Of a DNA stretch of 64,000 nt, positions 1 to 6,872 are shown one piece after another (position 1 is the stretch's first letter; each line of letters begins with the position of its first letter). Both the position numbers and the translations under genes were made by a program. A model generated the notes under the pieces. It was not told where the DNA came from, did not search any database, and worked only from the letters and a program-made list of their open reading frames with translations. Source of the stretch: Candidatus Versatilivorator sp. (GTDB lineage: Bacteria; Acidobacteriota; Terriglobia; Versatilivoradales; Versatilivoraceae); the NCBI GenBank assembly GCA_965207735.1, contig OZ242296.1, positions 2,304,001-2,368,000 on the forward strand. Reading direction: 5' to 3'.

Positions 1-913
1 CGGCCTCGATGGCCCCTATCAGCCCGTCGTAGTGCCGCCGGGCTTCCCCCACGATCTGGGGACGCATCAGCAGCAGACCCACGGTGGCCCGGGGATCCAG
101 ACTGCGCCCGGTGGCCGCCCGGTACCAGTCCCGGTAGGCGCTGAAGCTCTCGAACAGATCGGGCGCCAGCGGGTGGTAGAGCCCGGTGGAGGGCCGCACC
201 TCGGGCGGGTCGGGCGCCGCCAGGGTGGCGTGGCCCGGCACGTAGTGCTTGACGGCGTGCAGCAACATGGAGCGAATGTTCTTGGGAGTGGGTTGCAGGA
301 AGTGGCAGTAGAGGATGAGGTAGTTCTTGATGTCCCTCAGTTTTCCGGCGCCGGGAACGAATTTCAGGATTGTGGGCAAGCGCCCGGCGAGCTTGTGGTA
401 GGCGTTGAAGCTCCCTTTGCCGGAGCGGGAGCCCCTGCCCGAGCGCGAGGCGGCTCGCCGGGACATCAGCTCAGACATCCAGGTTCCCAGGCGGTGAGCC
501 AGGCTCTGACCCGATCCCGGACGGCCGGCCCGGCGGCCCGAGCGCTTGAGGGTGGACATCAGGCGGCCCAGATCCAGCTTGCCCATGCGGGTCCGGCCCA
601 TCAGATCGGCCAGGCAATTGAACACGATCACCGCATGGTGGCGATGGCGGAAGCGGTCCAGGGCCTCCAGCAGGCGCCGGCTGTTGTCCGAATCGGTCAG
701 GTGCATGACCAGCACCAGGTCGGCCCCGGCGAGATCCTCCAGGGCCGCCTCCCACTCGGGATCCGACCAGGCGGCTCCGCCGTTGTGGGCGGCCAGGCGC
801 AGCTCCAGTCCATGCTCCCGGATCTCGCTTTCGGCCCTCCGCAACGGGGCCAATATGCTGGAGCCCACGTAAAACACCACTACCTGGACCGGATTCGGGA
901 CTGAATCCTTCAC
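1..913 (-). CDS. bchH: Magnesium chelatase subunit H (BchH/ChlH), N-terminal region; runs off the window edge
   Basis: Not in the ORF track because it is open at the edge. Manual translation from GTG at 913 (GTGA overlap with the upstream stop) gives ...LMGRTRMGKLDL...RLPTILKFVPG...GLYHPLAP...VGLLLMRPQI...HYDGLIGAIEA, matching the BchH/ChlH N-terminal region. Confidence 0.85.
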   Translation of the reverse strand, partial: MKDSVPNPVQVVVFYVGSSILAPLRRAESEIREHGLELRLAAHNGGAAWSDPEWEAALEDLAGADLVLVMHLTDSDNSRRLLEALDRFRHRHHAVIVFNCLADLMGRTRMGKLDLGRLMSTLKRSGRRAGRPGSGQSLAHRLGTWMSELMSRRAASRSGRGSRSGKGSFNAYHKLAGRLPTILKFVPGAGKLRDIKNYLILYCHFLQPTPKNIRSMLLHAVKHYVPGHATLAAPDPPEVRPSTGLYHPLAPDLFESFSAYRDWYRAATGRSLDPRATVGLLLMRPQIVGEARRHYDGLIGAIEA

Positions 914-2646
914 GGAGCGACTCCTTCCAGGGCGTCTTCCAAACCGGCAAACACTTCTCTGAGCCGGCTCAACACCTCGGGCCTGGCCGACCAGAACCCT
1001 CGCCCGGAGGCTTCCAGCAGCCGGCCCACCAGGGTCTGGGCCGAGTGGGGGTTGAGGCTCTGCAAACGCTCGAGCATCTGCGAGTCCAGCACGAAGGTCT
1101 CGGCCACCTCGTCGTAGATCCAGTCCTCGACCGCATCGGCCGTGGCCGACCACCCGAAGGTGTTGGTCAGTTGGTGCTCGATCTCGGCCACGCCGCTGAA
1201 GCCGTGCTTGAGCATGCCCTCGTACCACTTGGGATTGAGGACCTTGGTTCGGCTCTCCAGTTGCAGCGTTTCCTGAAGGGTGCGAACCCTGGAACGGGGG
1301 GTGAGCGAATCGGAGAGGTAGACTTGCGGCCGCTTGCCGGACCGTTCCTCCACGGCCTTGGTCACCCCTCCCAGGTACTCGAAGTAGTGGTCCACATCCG
1401 ATATGCCCACCTCGGTGCTGTCGATGTTCTGATAGCTGGCTTCCACGCGGGAGAGGGCGCTGTCCAGCAGCGCCTGGGCCTCCCGCCCTTCCAGGGGGCG
1501 GCCCCGGGCGTCGCGCCCGTAGGCGAAGCACTTGCGCTTGACGAAGAGGTCTCCCAGCTCCCTGGAATCCTCCCACTGGCTCTGCAGCACCATGAAGTTG
1601 ACGTTGGTGCCGTAGTTTCCGGCCGCATTGGAGAACACGCGGGTGGCCGCTTCCTCGAAGGTGGACCGGCCCTGGGCGATCTGCTGTTGGACGTGCTTGC
1701 GGATGAAGTTTTGGTCCGGAGGCTCCTCCAGGGCCGCCACCCGCTTGACGGCCCGGTCCAGCAGCTCCATGGTGGAGGCGAACAGGTCCCGGAAGATGCC
1801 CGAGACGGTCATGACCACGTCGATTCTGGGCCGCCCCAGCTGCTCCAGGGGAATGGCCTCCACCTCGGTCACCCGGTTGAGTCCATCCCGCACCGGCCGC
1901 ACCCCCAGCAGCCACAGCACCTGGGCCACCGCCTCTCCCTCCTTCTTGATGTTGTCGATACCCCAGAGCACCATGGCGATGGACTCGGGGACCCGGCCGG
2001 TCTCCTGCCGGTGGCGTTCCAGCAGGGCCCGGGTCAGGGGCTCGGCCCGGCCAAGGGCCAAGGGAGTGGGGATGGCATAGGGATTGATGGCATGAGTGTT
2101 CCTGCCGGTCGGCAGAATGGCGGGGTTCTGCAGCAGGTCCCCTCCGGGTCCGGGCGGCAGGTAGTTTCCCCTCAGGCCGGCAACCAACCCCTCCAGCTCC
2201 CGGTTGGACTGCAGGCGCAGGTTCAGCCTGCCCAGGAAGGCCAGGATTTCCAGGGACGCATCCTCAGCCACGCCGGCACGCTGCCGGAGCCAGAGCGCCG
2301 TTTCCCGCTCGGGTTGCGCTCCCGGCGCCAGCAGGCGCCCGATGGTCTCCCGGGTCAGGTCTTCCACCGACTCCCGCTCCCGCATCCGCTCCGCGGAGGC
2401 CTGGCTCTCCTCCAGCAACCGGGCATAGGGCGGCAACCCCAGGCTCGCGGCAATGAGATCGGTCAGGGCCGGAAGGCCGAGCTCCGGCCTGGGGAAGGAG
2501 CCCACCATGGCCAGCAGGTGAACGGTCTCGGCCGCGCCGCCAGGCTTGCCGAAGGTGTGGAGTCCGGTCGGAATGAGGCGCTGTTCGATTTCCAGCACCC
2601 TTTCATAGAGGTCCAGCACCCGGCGGTCGCGTTCTTCGCTGGTCAT
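910..2646 (-). CDS. bchH: Stand-alone C-terminal half of Mg-chelatase H (CobN/BchH family)
   Basis: Motifs EIEQRLIPTGLH, LPTGRNTHA, VLWGIDNIK, RPRIDVVMTVSGIFRDLF, RVFSNAAG, RTKVLNPKWYEGML and NTFGWSAT. GAGGGG RBS precedes the ATG at 2646. The protein lacks roughly the N-terminal 60% of a normal H subunit. Confidence 0.88.
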   Translation of the reverse strand: MTSEERDRRVLDLYERVLEIEQRLIPTGLHTFGKPGGAAETVHLLAMVGSFPRPELGLPALTDLIAASLGLPPYARLLEESQASAERMRERESVEDLTRETIGRLLAPGAQPERETALWLRQRAGVAEDASLEILAFLGRLNLRLQSNRELEGLVAGLRGNYLPPGPGGDLLQNPAILPTGRNTHAINPYAIPTPLALGRAEPLTRALLERHRQETGRVPESIAMVLWGIDNIKKEGEAVAQVLWLLGVRPVRDGLNRVTEVEAIPLEQLGRPRIDVVMTVSGIFRDLFASTMELLDRAVKRVAALEEPPDQNFIRKHVQQQIAQGRSTFEEAATRVFSNAAGNYGTNVNFMVLQSQWEDSRELGDLFVKRKCFAYGRDARGRPLEGREAQALLDSALSRVEASYQNIDSTEVGISDVDHYFEYLGGVTKAVEERSGKRPQVYLSDSLTPRSRVRTLQETLQLESRTKVLNPKWYEGMLKHGFSGVAEIEHQLTNTFGWSATADAVEDWIYDEVAETFVLDSQMLERLQSLNPHSAQTLVGRLLEASGRGFWSARPEVLSRLREVFAGLEDALEGVAP

Positions 2647-2654
2647 CGATCCCC

Positions 2655-4628
2655 TCAACCGACCGCCCTGCCCCGGACGTCCTCGGCCACCGACTTCACC
2701 GCCTGAAACAGCGCCCCCTGGTCCGTTCGGGGCAGCCGCAGGTAGCGCGCCCCGATCCGGTCGGCCAGGGTCCGGCCCTCTCCCCCGGCCAGAAAAGGGG
2801 GCCGGGTATCCACCACCACCGCGGTCAAGGCCTCCTGACGGATCTCGCCGCCCAGCAGTTGCAGTTCCCGCTGCAGGGCAGCCGCTTTCGAGCCCTGTCC
2901 CAAGGGCGCCGGACGGACCGGACGGTTGGCCCGGCCGTCGGTGAGAATTAGCAGCACCGGTTGGGGAGAGCCGCGTAGCCGAGCAGCGCGCGCCACCTCC
3001 AGGGCCTGCACCAGCCCGGCGGCCAGGGGGGTGGCTCCGCCGGCGGGCAGAGCCTCCACCAGGCGCATGGCCCGCTCGACGCTTCGGGTGGGCGGAAGCA
3101 GCGTTTGGGCACCGTCGCCGCCGAAGCGGACCAGCGCCACCTGGTCCCGAAAGACATAGGCCTGCTGCAAAAGCCGGGCCGTGGCGCCCTTGGCCTGGGC
3201 CATGCGGTTCACGGCCATACTACCACTGGCGTCCACCACGAAGACAAATAGGATCCCGGCCTTGCTCCGAAAACGGTGGAAGCGCAAGTCCGAGGCCCGG
3301 ATGACCATTCCGGCCCCCACCCTGCCGGCCGGTCCGCGCCCGCCTGCGCGGGGACGGTCCCGATCGTCTCCGGGGACCGCGGCCGCCTGCCGCCGGCGCC
3401 AATACTGCCAGGGGGCCGCTGCCCGCAGGGTTGCCGCCACGGCTATGGAACGCCTGCGGTCCGGCTGCAGGCCGGCGCGGAAGGCCCTCCCTGGAGAACC
3501 GGGAAGCCTCTGGGACATGGTCCCTTGCCGGCGGCCGGCGGCCCGGGAAGCCGGGAGCTGGGCGACCATCTCCTCGGGGAACTTTCCGGGAAGGGCGTCC
3601 ACCGGCCTGGGCGGCTCCTGGGCGGGCGGCGAGCGGTCTTCGGTGGGGGCGCCGGGTTCGGGGCCGGGAGCTTCATCGCCCTGCCCTTCCTCCGGCCGGG
3701 CCTGCTCATGCCGGGGGCCGGCGGCGGGCTTCTCATCCACCGGCAGGGCTCGGGGCCACAGGACCAGCCGCGCCGCCATCTCCAGATCCTTCTCCGACAC
3801 CTGGCTGCGTCCGGCCAGGGCCGCGTGGGCCCGGGCCGCCCATATGGCAAACAGGTCCAGCCGATGTCCCTCCAGCCCCAGTCGAGCGGCTTCGCCGACG
3901 AGTCGGCGCAGGTCGCCCTCGGAGATGCCGACCTGGCCCATCCGGCTCCGGGCTTGCAGAATGGATTCGGCAGCGGAGGGGGCCGGGCCGGAGCCGGCGG
4001 GCGCCACAGCGGAGCCGGCGGGCTCCCAACCCGGCCGGCCTTCTTCATAACCCCGCAGCAGCTCGAGCACCCGGCGCCGCTGATCCAGGTCGGGCGTGTA
4101 GGAGCCGTCCACCAGCAGTCCTACCCGGGCCTCAATGATGGCCCCAGGGCGGCCTTCGGCGGGATCGTAGGCTCCCACCAGGGCGAACCTGGCGGGGTGG
4201 GAAGTGCTGACACCCTCCCGTTCGACCCCGACCCGGCCTGAGTCGAGCGACGAGGCGATGGCGCGGAGAGGGGCTTCCGGCAGCAGATTGACGTGATCGA
4301 CCTGAAGAACCCCCCGGTCCGCCTGGGCAAGCAGCCCCTTGCGGTAGCGCCAGCGCGCTCCGGCCGCCTCCGGCTCCGGACTCAAGCCCCCCAGCAGCCG
4401 GTCTTGGCCAACTCCCAAGGGAACCCTCACCAGAGCGGCCTCGCGACCGTCCGGCTTCAGGGCCTCCAGCAGGGAGACGAAGACCTTCACCAGCTTGCGC
4501 TTGCCCGTCCCGGAAGGCAAAGCCATCAGCAGGCCGCCCAGGCGAGGCTCGACTGCCAGCAACAGCAAGGCCCGCTTCGCCAACGGCTGACCCACCACGG
4601 AAGCAAAAAGATCATCGAGAATGGTCAT
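2655..4628 (-). CDS. bchD: Mg-chelatase subunit D (degenerate AAA+, Pro-rich linker, vWA/MIDAS)
   Basis: GLLAQADRGVLQVDHVNLL and VEREGVS in the AAA domain; MIDAS VVDASGSM, GGATPLAAGL and LTDGRAN. Start placed at ATG 4628 because the longer ORF reads through a repeat. Confidence 0.85.
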   Translation of the reverse strand: MTILDDLFASVVGQPLAKRALLLLAVEPRLGGLLMALPSGTGKRKLVKVFVSLLEALKPDGREAALVRVPLGVGQDRLLGGLSPEPEAAGARWRYRKGLLAQADRGVLQVDHVNLLPEAPLRAIASSLDSGRVGVEREGVSTSHPARFALVGAYDPAEGRPGAIIEARVGLLVDGSYTPDLDQRRRVLELLRGYEEGRPGWEPAGSAVAPAGSGPAPSAAESILQARSRMGQVGISEGDLRRLVGEAARLGLEGHRLDLFAIWAARAHAALAGRSQVSEKDLEMAARLVLWPRALPVDEKPAAGPRHEQARPEEGQGDEAPGPEPGAPTEDRSPPAQEPPRPVDALPGKFPEEMVAQLPASRAAGRRQGTMSQRLPGSPGRAFRAGLQPDRRRSIAVAATLRAAAPWQYWRRRQAAAVPGDDRDRPRAGGRGPAGRVGAGMVIRASDLRFHRFRSKAGILFVFVVDASGSMAVNRMAQAKGATARLLQQAYVFRDQVALVRFGGDGAQTLLPPTRSVERAMRLVEALPAGGATPLAAGLVQALEVARAARLRGSPQPVLLILTDGRANRPVRPAPLGQGSKAAALQRELQLLGGEIRQEALTAVVVDTRPPFLAGGEGRTLADRIGARYLRLPRTDQGALFQAVKSVAEDVRGRAVG

Positions 4629-4649
4629 GGAAATCCGGAACAGAGTTAT

Positions 4650-4785
4650 CCACGAAGAGGAACGAAGGATTGTAGATTGTAGATTGTAGATTGTAGATTG
4701 TGGATTGTAGATTGTGGATTGTGGATCTAAGGCGGAATCAGTTGCCGTCAATCCTCAATCAACAATCAGAAATCAACAATCAAGA
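4650..4785. repeat. Heptamer-arm palindromic element (family A) preceded by a CCACGAAG motif (family E)
   Basis: About 8 tandem TTGT(A/G)GA units, a short core, then AATCAAC-type units on the opposite arm. Confidence 0.85.
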
Positions 4786-4797
4786 GGCGAAACCTCG

Positions 4798-5915
4798 TTA
4801 GCCGCCGGCGGCCTGGGCATCGCCGGTCTCCAGGGGGAACACCCTCTCCAGGGCCTGCTCGATCCGGGCGGCGGATTCGAGCGGCTCCAGGGGATCCTTG
4901 CGAAGCCGGTGGCGCAGCGACATGACGGCCACCCGCCGGATGTCCTCGGGCAGGACGGCCTCCCCTCCCCGCCAGGCAGCCAGGGCGCGGGAGGCGCGAT
5001 AGAGGGTCAGCTCACCCCGGTGGCCGGCCACCTCCAGCCTCAAACAGAGCTCGGCCATCCCCCTCAGCAGCTCCGCATCCACGCCGACCCGGGAGATGAG
5101 GGACAGGGCCGCCTTCAGCTTGCGCCGCAGCTCCTCCTGGAGGAGTTCCGCCCGGGAGCAGAATCCGGCCGGATCCTGTTCGAAGCTCTGGCGCCTGCGC
5201 ACGATCTCGACCCGCTCGTCCAGGTCATCCAGCGTCTTGACCTCCACGAACAGTCCGAAGCGGTCCAGCAACTGGGGCCGCAACTCCCCTTCCTCGGGAT
5301 TGCCCGATCCCACCAGCACGAAACGGGCGGCGTGGCTCACCGAGATCCCCTCCCGCTCCACCTGGTTGCGGCCGCTGGCGGCCGCGTCCAGCAGAAGGTC
5401 CACCAGGTAATCCTCCAGCAGATTGACCTCGTCGATGTAGAGAAAACCCCGATGGGCCTTGGCCAGCAACCCGGGCTGGAACACCTTGACCCCCCGGTTC
5501 AAGGCCTGCTCGATGTCAAGACTGCCGCAGACCCGGTCTTCGGTGGCCCCAGGGGCAGATCGACCACCGGGGCGGCGAAGGTCTCGCGGGGCAGACGCTT
5601 GCCCTTGCCCTGGCGTTCCCGGCATTCCCGGCAGAGGTCTCGAACCCGCCCCGGATCGCAGTTGAAGGGGCAGCCCTTCACCCGTACCTTGGGAGGCAAA
5701 AGGTCGGCCAGGGCCCTCACTGCCGTGGACTTGGCCGTGCCCCGATGACCCATGACCACCACGCCTCCGAGCTGGGAGTCGAGCACCGCCAGCAGCAGGG
5801 CCAGCTTCATGTCCTCCTGGCCGACGATGGCCGAAAAAGGGTAGACGGGGGGAGCGACTCCCCGAGGCGGCTTGGCTTTCCTGGACTTGGTCGAGCGGGG
5901 TTCAGGCAGGCTCAC
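4798..5915 (-). pseudogene. bchI: Mg-chelatase ATPase subunit I, frameshifted (1-nt loss in a G run; possibly a sequencing error)
   Basis: The 5' frame has YPFSAIVGQ, Walker [10 protein letters not shown] and PVVDLPLG. The second frame has [31 protein letters not shown] and [17 protein letters not shown]. The break is at CCCC 5547-5550. Confidence 0.85.
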
Positions 5916-6252: not shown

Positions 6253-6618
6253 TCAAATCAGGTCGTCGACATCTACCCGCAGAGCAGTGGCCAAGCGCTT
6301 CAAGGCGTTGATTGAGCCGGGCTTTTTCCGGTTCTCTATGGCCGACAGGTAGGAGGCCGCAACTCCGGCGGCAGCGGCGAGTTCAACCCCTCTCAAGCCC
6401 CGATACTCCCGCCAGACGCGCACCGGACTCTCCCCGGCCAGCAGCCGGTCCACCAGCTCGATGGGAACCGATTCCTCGTCAGGATCCTCAAGTACCCGCC
6501 GCATGGCGGCAGCGTCCCGCGCATCCTCGTCAACGGCGTTGCGCAGCTCCTCATATTCGGAAAGGGGAACGACAACATAGGCTTCGCCGGCCAGGGTGAT
6601 GGTTTGGGGTCTGGTCAC
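6253..6618 (-). CDS. Xre-family HTH antitoxin
   Basis: N-terminal YVVVPLSEYEEL and C-terminal HTH VRVWREYRGL...LAAAAGVAASYLSAIENRKKPGS; overlaps the toxin stop. Confidence 0.85.
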   Translation of the reverse strand: MTRPQTITLAGEAYVVVPLSEYEELRNAVDEDARDAAAMRRVLEDPDEESVPIELVDRLLAGESPVRVWREYRGLRGVELAAAAGVAASYLSAIENRKKPGSINALKRLATALRVDVDDLI

Positions 6619-6872
6619 GAGCAGGCGCCTCCACGGGGCAAGATATTGGTACTACTCAGGATGCGGGAAGGGATGTCCAATTGGTACAACACTCGCCAAT
6701 CGCCCACCCGCAGCCGAAATCCCTCGATCCCACGCAATGGCGTCACATTGTTGTGCTGCGCCAAGGGATCCGCAGCCACCGCGGTGATCTTGCCGCGGAC
6801 GATCTGCGCCGTCTTGGCGGGCATGCGCGTCAGGCAACGGCGGGCGCTCTTGGAAATCACTACCTCAAACAC
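6615..6872 (-). CDS. RelE/ParE-family type II toxin
   Basis: 85 aa with the RelE signature LRGIEGFRLRVGDWRVLY; toxin-first (HigBA-like) order. Confidence 0.85.
   Translation of the reverse strand: MFEVVISKSARRCLTRMPAKTAQIVRGKITAVAADPLAQHNNVTPLRGIEGFRLRVGDWRVLYQLDIPSRILSSTNILPRGGACS

Follow-up and report, generated by a model that had tools for sequence, protein, structure and literature searches.

What does an operon resembling that of magnesium (Mg) chelatase do in an acidobacterium that shows no sign of photosynthesis? The question is raised by a 64 kb stretch (hereafter the window) of the genome of Candidatus Versatilivorator sp. (G000; one contig, 5.26 Mb, 100% complete), in which the genes of an AAA+ motor, bchI and bchD, are followed by an H subunit split into two genes, with the gene for the C-terminal half coming first. 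The reading that we prefer, with a probability of about 0.38, is that the split H inserts Fe(II) into free protoporphyrin IX and so salvages haem b for respiratory cytochromes. That it works somewhere on the haem side, taking iron insertion, dechelation and chaperoning together, appears likely.

An H subunit encoded by two genes

The gene for the C-terminal half (C-half; 578 amino acids, minus strand, 910..2646) stands before that for the N-terminal half (N-half; 737 amino acids) on the same strand. The first 304 codons of the N-half lie in the window (minus strand, 1..913), and the gene runs on to G000:C1:2302700. The C-half stop and the GTG start of the N-half overlap in a GTGA (minus strand, 910..913), through which we infer that the two are translationally coupled, and in relatives the match to the N-half starts where the C-half ends. 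Against the BchH model PRK12493 (1313 positions) the N-half covers positions 18-706 and the C-half 721-1310; against Synechocystis ChlH (tagged numbering) the N-half match ends at 744 and the C-half match starts at 761. By alignment the halves are complementary, the missing piece being only a linker of ~16 residues. Taken singly, each scores below the TIGR02025 cut-off (657.8 and 675.2 vs 829 bits).

An earlier interpretation of the same DNA, made without database searches (the sequence-only reading), had given the gene order as bchI, bchD, C-half and a GTGA-coupled N-start, which holds. It left a choice between a naturally two-piece H and a full-length H with an extra C-half partner, and proposed looking at whether the downstream gene stops near the point where the C-half begins. 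It does so, with the complementary coverage given above: the gene stops at 737 amino acids and is therefore not a full-length H, which refutes the version with a spare C-half. The two-piece version is borne out by this end in the genome and by the same layout in relatives. The argument that a C-half upstream of the N-start cannot come from a simple frameshift also stands, an origin by assembly artefact or frameshift being ruled out by the loci of relatives and by contigs from public sequencing runs. Positions 1-4718 of the window, junction included, show 0 differences to a contig of run X1 (which may be the window's own source), and a sponge-metagenome contig (run X8) covers the entire operon, differing from it in some hundreds of places. 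In RNA run X20, from a related strain, one contig over 858-1446 bridges the junction, contigs being unable to show co-transcription.

Both halves were found in 13/13 congeners and in two further genera of the family (among 40 relatives). Assemblies G001 and G010 carry a frameshift in the C-half, and the loci of G003 and G012 run off their contigs. The synteny that the sequence-only reading had wished to see checked is complete: the C-half precedes the N-half on one strand in 64/64 loci with both halves called, across several Acidobacteriota families (gene starts in the genomes are approximate, being calls from a home-made codon scorer). Among the best 80 of 588 loci from species genomes, 57 hold a stand-alone C-half and the remaining 23 are fused, mostly from Chloroflexota and cyanobacteria. 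The N-half lies downstream in 55 of these 57, the contig ending first in the other two; the titles of the 57 name Pyrinomonadaceae, Blastocatellia, Bryobacteraceae or Acidobacteriota, with one reading 'bacterium' only. An even draw across the phylum gave the split type in 11/400 genomes, from three families, and carriers make up 22/45 of family f38 (G456 left out). No fused member of the split clade appeared in the best 120 of 5389 longer proteins (7998 candidates scored), and identity of the split H to full-length H among these 120 is at most 50%. A single 50% cluster holds the split clade among 1.84 billion representatives (1057 bits vs 679 for the next). A literature search, with subscription papers and supplements outside its scope, found no published description of a split H.

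Ancestry and class membership

The halves score 563-706 bits with BchH models vs 112-381 bits with CobN models, and against the N-half ChlH reaches 484 bits where HmuS reaches 143. Separate trees of the N-half and the C-half agree in placing the split sequences on one branch (Shimodaira-Hasegawa-like approximate likelihood ratio test, SH-aLRT, 100; clade support 100/99), inside the BchH/ChlH crown (95/99), where they stand next to those of cyanobacteria, heliobacteria and Chloroflexota; the crown is unresolved at its deepest forks, and the trees included no HmuS and no named green sulfur bacterial BchH. The sequence-only reading had assigned H to the Mg-chelatase clade rather than to CobN and had called for such a tree; profile scores and the trees, run without HmuS, agree with that assignment. 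The full-length BchH of two G189-type acidobacteria (Chloracidobacterium-like, with PscA, FMO (Fenna-Matthews-Olson protein) and BchF present) is not sister to the split H, and inheritance from a Chloracidobacterium-type BchH is rejected, a joint clade having p-AU (approximately unbiased test) 0.009 for the C-half, the half to which the test was applied.

With Mg-chelatase (BchHID/ChlHID; Synechocystis ChlH, PDB 4ZHJ/6YSG; the BchH of Chloroflexota, heliobacteria and G189) the split system shares the clade, the fold, the head domain DUF3479, six active-site residues, and partners in one operon, BchI with Walker A/B and an arginine finger and BchD with a MIDAS (metal ion-dependent adhesion site) motif. 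It differs in its two reversed H genes, where Mg-chelatase has a single chain of ~1200-1400 amino acids, in an inserted head helix, in its identity of no more than 50%, in the lack of downstream chlorophyll genes and a reaction centre, in a motor that is fused or missing in relatives, and in a host without HemF/HemN that apparently makes no protoporphyrin IX. In mode of action it would be a class I porphyrin chelatase, but because three defining features are wanting (the single chain, the chlorophyll pathway with its reaction centre, and host HemF/HemN) we do not file it as Mg-chelatase.

CobN cobaltochelatase belongs to the same superfamily, but the CobN scores are lower, the split H falls outside the CobN clade, and markers of the aerobic cobalamin (B12) pathway were not found in G000. 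The haem dechelatase HmuS/BtuS of Bacteroidota (PDB 9D26) has a class I fold outside chlorophyll and B12 synthesis, has the HGTHG histidine in common with the split H, and is a precedent for a class I chelatase without an AAA+ motor (PMC12583661). It differs as a single membrane-anchored chain of >1400 amino acids encoded in a haem-uptake operon, and it is far less similar to the N-half than ChlH is. With HmuS outside the trees, membership in that class is denied by the low score and by the lack of a single anchored chain and an hmu uptake operon.

Phototrophy and cobalamin synthesis

In the complete single-contig genome of G000, PsaA/B, Photo_RC and dark-operative protochlorophyllide oxidoreductase (DPOR) were unmatched and bchM had no match over the cut-off. 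A tblastn search with PscA, FMO, BchL and BchF of the phototrophic acidobacterium G189 gave no match in G000, and of the purple-bacterial photosynthesis cluster genes only bchH and general enzymes matched there. PsaA/B was not found in 4/4 other carriers tested, with G189 positive as a phototrophic control. Hidden phototrophy is rejected on the lack of a reaction centre, bchM or DPOR in a complete genome. The sequence-only reading had raised an unrecognised phototrophic acidobacterium and had named bchM and pscA as markers to search for; that suggestion falls. Its second suggestion, a non-photosynthetic tetrapyrrole (de)chelation role, fits the findings as to the kind of role, the direction and the metal staying conjectural. 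Chelatase homologues in non-photosynthetic lineages have been noted before, the split lineage not being among them in the available part of that paper (PMC3595025).

A role in B12 synthesis is likewise rejected: cbiC was not found in G000 or in 13/13 congeners, and cobQ was not found in G000. Two of the 13 congeners, both lacking cbiC, hold a second, full-length CobN-like gene of ~1350 amino acids and 32-33% identity (L150, G006:C74:41845-44538; and G007:C304).

Selection, active site and predicted assembly

Both halves are under purifying selection, with ratios of non-synonymous to synonymous substitution (dN/dS) of 0.12-0.19 between G000 and seven congeners and of 0.07-0.19 over all H-half comparisons. 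The active-site residues of ChlH are H621, E625, Y651, Y653, E660 and H1174 (PMC13297055), and they were mapped through PDB alignments of the halves to ChlH. The first five correspond to H633, E637, Y663, Y665 and E672 of the N-half, which fall outside the window edge and are invariant in 57/57 split sequences; the sixth corresponds to H420 of the C-half, invariant in 63/63. Because five residues sit on one half and one on the other, the active site, on this mapping, needs both chains. Of the columns conserved in full-length H, 113/140 and 135/165 are equally conserved in split H.

A functionless relic of lost phototrophy, or phototrophy that has escaped recognition, might be suspected from the nearest full-length relatives, which are phototroph enzymes of up to 50% identity, and from the two frameshifted C-halves. 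The low dN/dS, the invariant active site, the lack of a reaction centre in G000 and in the four other carriers, and the rejected clade with G189 BchH speak against this reading, which is largely refuted and very improbable.

The halves, which the sequence-only reading had proposed to model as a complex, are predicted to reassemble. ESMFold2 places N-half residues 452-737 on the C-half with an interaction prediction score from aligned errors (ipSAE) of 0.93, the best control reaching 0.00; at least 92% of contacts agree between runs, and the partner has a predicted local distance difference test score (pLDDT) of at least 89. By rough counts the ipSAE mark is reached by 116/157 solved and 2/215 mismatched pairs, and this pass may be by likeness, because the structure of intact ChlH is solved. 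The N-half model (pLDDT 76.9) has ChlH as its best structural match (Foldseek E 2e-43). The inserted head-domain helix, specific to the clade (N-half residues 134-155; minus strand, 449..514), is a gap in most full-length H and is helical in the AlphaFold2 model at a low pLDDT of 41-48. Its W145 is invariant in 40/40, and the helix, basic and amphipathic-looking, is possibly membrane-binding.

The haem route of the host

The sole ferrochelatase of G000 best matches coproporphyrin enzymes (179 bits vs 127 for human FECH). HemY is present, HemF was not found in G000, and HemN had no match over the cut-off there or in any of the 25 genomes of its family; some other carriers of split H do have HemN or HemF. 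A very divergent ChdC/HemQ-like gene lies directly after ccmC (L167:5310-6029, minus strand), and this weak-scoring form occurs in 25/25 genomes of the family, other families scoring ~200 bits. In the coproporphyrin route, which is used by three of four Acidobacteria counted, protoporphyrin IX is not an intermediate (PMC10740692). From its gene content G000 appears to make haem by this route, bypassing protoporphyrin IX. As G000 has hemH, replacement of a sole ferrochelatase by the split chelatase is rejected. One carrier with a cytochrome bc/oxidase operon (G303, L141; 99% complete, 150 contigs) gave no match for ferrochelatase, HemY, HemN or HemF. G000 also has a cluster of multihaem cytochromes (G000:C1:3799815-3837459), every one of which carries between 4 and 15 CxxCH motifs.

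The ferrochelatases encoded in these genomes sort into a coproporphyrin-like clade and protoporphyrin-like clades. Within the host's own family a second, protoporphyrin-type hemH occurs in 0/16 carriers of split H vs 7/9 non-carriers (G003 gave no ferrochelatase match, and the second hemH of G018 is frameshifted). No HemN was found in the family's genomes with a second hemH, and no HemF in the three tested. In 6 of these 7 non-carriers the second hemH lies directly upstream of an operon for multihaem c, molybdopterin/FeS and NrfD proteins, which we take to be alternative complex III. Elsewhere a protoporphyrin-type hemH stands directly upstream of the bc/oxidase Rieske gene (G029, G037) or adjoins ccmC (G039), and G071 and G098 combine a bc operon and a clean ccmA-Rieske junction without chelatase with a protoporphyrin-type hemH. 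Loci with a protoporphyrin-type hemH, mostly without HemN, heading respiratory cytochrome operons or adjoining ccm are L171, L172, L173, L174, L175, L183, L177, L178 and L184. The protoporphyrin ferrochelatase PpfC (HemH), a class II enzyme, is our proposed functional counterpart of the split chelatase, holding equivalent operon-head positions in relatives free of split H. It differs as an unrelated, small, single-chain enzyme, and the equivalence is drawn from distribution and position.

Neighbouring cytochrome genes

The chelatase genes of Pyrinomonadaceae are flanked on one side by the ccm operon and on the other by an operon of Rieske, split cytochrome b, multihaem c, ctaAB and cox genes. 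The link to the bc/oxidase operon recurs in Bryobacteraceae (L049, L061) and in G303. In family f38 the bc/oxidase Rieske gene is present in 22/22 carriers vs 1/23 non-carriers (G456 left out), within ~9 kb of the chelatase in 19/22, with ccm genes on the other side.

This position between haem consumers would also suit a non-catalytic haem or porphyrin chaperone. It would deliver haem b at the membrane, where Ccm, cytochrome b and CtaB receive it, and would let go of its load by the power of the AAA+ motor. The inserted basic helix is in keeping with such a protein, which could work with or without a motor and fits either haem route. The invariant catalytic glutamates and proton-path tyrosines, however, suggest chemistry at the ring nitrogens over mere binding, and we consider a chaperone improbable.

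The AAA+ motor

In G000 the motor is encoded by two genes. The gene of the bchI-type AAA+ ATPase (minus strand, 4798..5915; ~372 amino acids in relatives) is split into two frames, with TIGR02030 matching on both pieces, by a 1-base deletion in a G run near 5546. This frameshift is an assembly error, since the missing base is carried by 8/8 relatives examined and by contigs from 3/4 public runs compared. The bchD-type subunit (657 amino acids; minus strand, 2655..4628) has a degenerate AAA+ domain, a linker and a von Willebrand factor A (vWA) domain with a MIDAS motif; it scores 484.4 bits with TIGR02031 (cut-off 499.55), and Pfam VWA_2 also matched.

In 39 loci I and D are fused into one gene that keeps Walker A, Walker B and MIDAS; 18/20 of the f38 carriers examined have the fused form. 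The fused (TIGR02442-like) gene of most Pyrinomonadaceae carriers may be compared with the single-gene chlD motors (PMC9227772). A crude scan saw no slippery site shared by the 39, and programmed frameshifting in them is not supported. Motor genes are missing at nine loci beside ccmA and at the loci of G351, G441, G017 and G086, a statement about the locus: G086 has I and D elsewhere in its genome, and bchI had no match genome-wide in G351 (97% complete). H halves without adjacent I/D have dN/dS of 0.07-0.16, over long branches. Since insertion of Mg costs up to 14 ATP and insertion of iron is favourable (PMC13297055), H halves that have no motor and are still under selection are hard to square with ATP-costly Mg insertion, which favours iron chemistry.

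These observations bear on a true Mg- (or Zn-) chelatase that would make Mg-protoporphyrin for a non-photosynthetic use, for instance as a signal or, in the split b6-type cytochrome complex, as a structural cofactor. Such an enzyme would accord with the place inside the BchH/ChlH clade, with the six invariant active-site equivalents and with a motor that is intact in G000 and most carriers, its motifs kept in the fused genes. Against it, the own family has no HemF/HemN to make protoporphyrin IX, G000 has no BchM, one lineage lacks the motor, and most genomes with the bc Rieske gene lack the chelatase; we regard it as distinctly unlikely.

HmuS removes iron without ATP and has an essential His-538 that is conserved across the superfamily (PMC12583661). 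The reassembled H could be an HmuS-like dechelatase, which would recover iron by taking it off haem b or would control cofactor quality by taking a wrong metal (Zn, Mg, Co) off protoporphyrin. Haem b would be the only protoporphyrin ring made in a coproporphyrin-route cell (our deduction, with PMC10740692), the motor-less H halves agree with ATP-free removal, and in this genus the region 4-9 kb downstream contains a split feoB together with two genes of MntR/DtxR type; a dechelatase would also account for carriers that hold a protoporphyrin ferrochelatase as well. On the other side, a haem importer is not among the recurring conserved neighbours of 59 clustered loci, the feoB link is confined to this genus, haem destruction beside cytochrome-assembly genes is counter-intuitive, and the N-half is far closer to ChlH than to HmuS. 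We find a dechelatase somewhat doubtful.

Iron insertion as the preferred reading

In the mechanism that we propose, the N-half and C-half products would reassemble into one porphyrin-binding body which, probably helped by the BchI/BchD motor, would put Fe(II) into free protoporphyrin IX arising from haem demetallation or uptake. The resident coproporphyrin-type ferrochelatase would not serve this substrate, because the host appears to make haem through coproporphyrin. The haem b so salvaged would supply respiratory cytochromes, and the split chelatase would do the job of the orphan protoporphyrin-type ferrochelatase in sister lineages. As ATP is not required for inserting iron, some lineages could do without the motor.

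Several points weigh against this proposal. We know of no class I chelatase that inserts iron. The split H has the active site of true Mg-chelatases, whose residues would also suit the removal of a metal. The proposal presupposes a source of free protoporphyrin, and the assignment as ChdC, one of the grounds for the haem route, is a weak one (E 0.017 against Listeria ChdC; 30.8 bits vs a cut-off of 235). The ferrochelatase contrast within the host's family may go back to a single phylogenetic event, since the ferrochelatases of G000, G017 and G020 belong to a common subclade, and the co-occurrence with the Rieske gene in f38 may reflect one clade and physical linkage. Across the phylum the bc Rieske gene is present in 121/400 genomes (G062 left out), only 12 of these with split H; the bc operon therefore does not need the chelatase, and an obligatory cofactor supply to the bc complex is rejected. 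In G000 itself the chelatase lies 1.3 Mb away from the bc and ccm genes. Six carriers (G086, G244, G415, G351, G449, G461) also have a hemH that is not of the coproporphyrin type; in three of them (G351, G449, G461) its neighbour is HemN, and both HemN and HemF occur in G244. Neither split H nor protoporphyrin hemH is present in G024, which has the bc Rieske gene, or in G014, which has no Rieske gene.

If the preferred reading holds, no natural ferrochelatase of class I would have been known before the split H. This lineage of the Mg-chelatase family, with its two chains, would have taken iron in place of magnesium (or never used magnesium) and would serve respiration in widespread soil and sponge acidobacteria. 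As parts of this joint claim, which we advance tentatively, its branch would match in depth those of cyanobacteria, heliobacteria and Chloroflexota, and one lineage would have shed the ATP motor.

Other features around the operon

Between bchI and bchD lies a 7-bp tandem repeat (4668..4726, no strand assigned), read from the sequence, in a strain-specific insert; contigs of runs X3 and X8 skip the stretch 4617/4631-4799 that spans it. A promoter scan gave 4 matches, every one within this repeat, which is probably not part of the chelatase system. Upstream of bchI is a small gene pair (minus strand, 6253-6872) that we presume, by resemblance, to be a RelE-type toxin with a helix-turn-helix antitoxin.

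Downstream of the chelatase in G000 come a gene with a metallo-beta-lactamase fold, a pair of MntR/DtxR-like genes and feoB. The first (L001:10703-12628, minus strand), 72 bp past the N-half, encodes a 641-amino-acid protein with two such domains; it also follows the N-half in G011 and G020 (74%) and was not found there in G017 or Pyrinomonadaceae. The others (L001:3679-7735, minus strand) are the MntR/DtxR-like pair, of which one member ends in a FeoA-like tail, and feoB, whose GTPase and membrane parts are separate genes; G011 has a similar arrangement.

Implications

BchH is usually taken as the committed step and the marker of chlorophyll-based phototrophy. With a whole deep BchH branch in hosts without the photosynthesis genes tested, matches to H, I and D alone are no proof of phototrophy. 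Because nature has split the protein at a fixed surface loop, smaller pieces that can be expressed apart are to hand, both of them bearing catalytic residues, and the occurrence of two-gene, fused and absent motors, all with a canonical active site, makes motor need and metal choice testable. For the acidobacteria themselves, the split chelatase suggests that bacteria which seemingly make their haem through coproporphyrin need, for reasons as yet unexplained, a chelatase acting on protoporphyrin.

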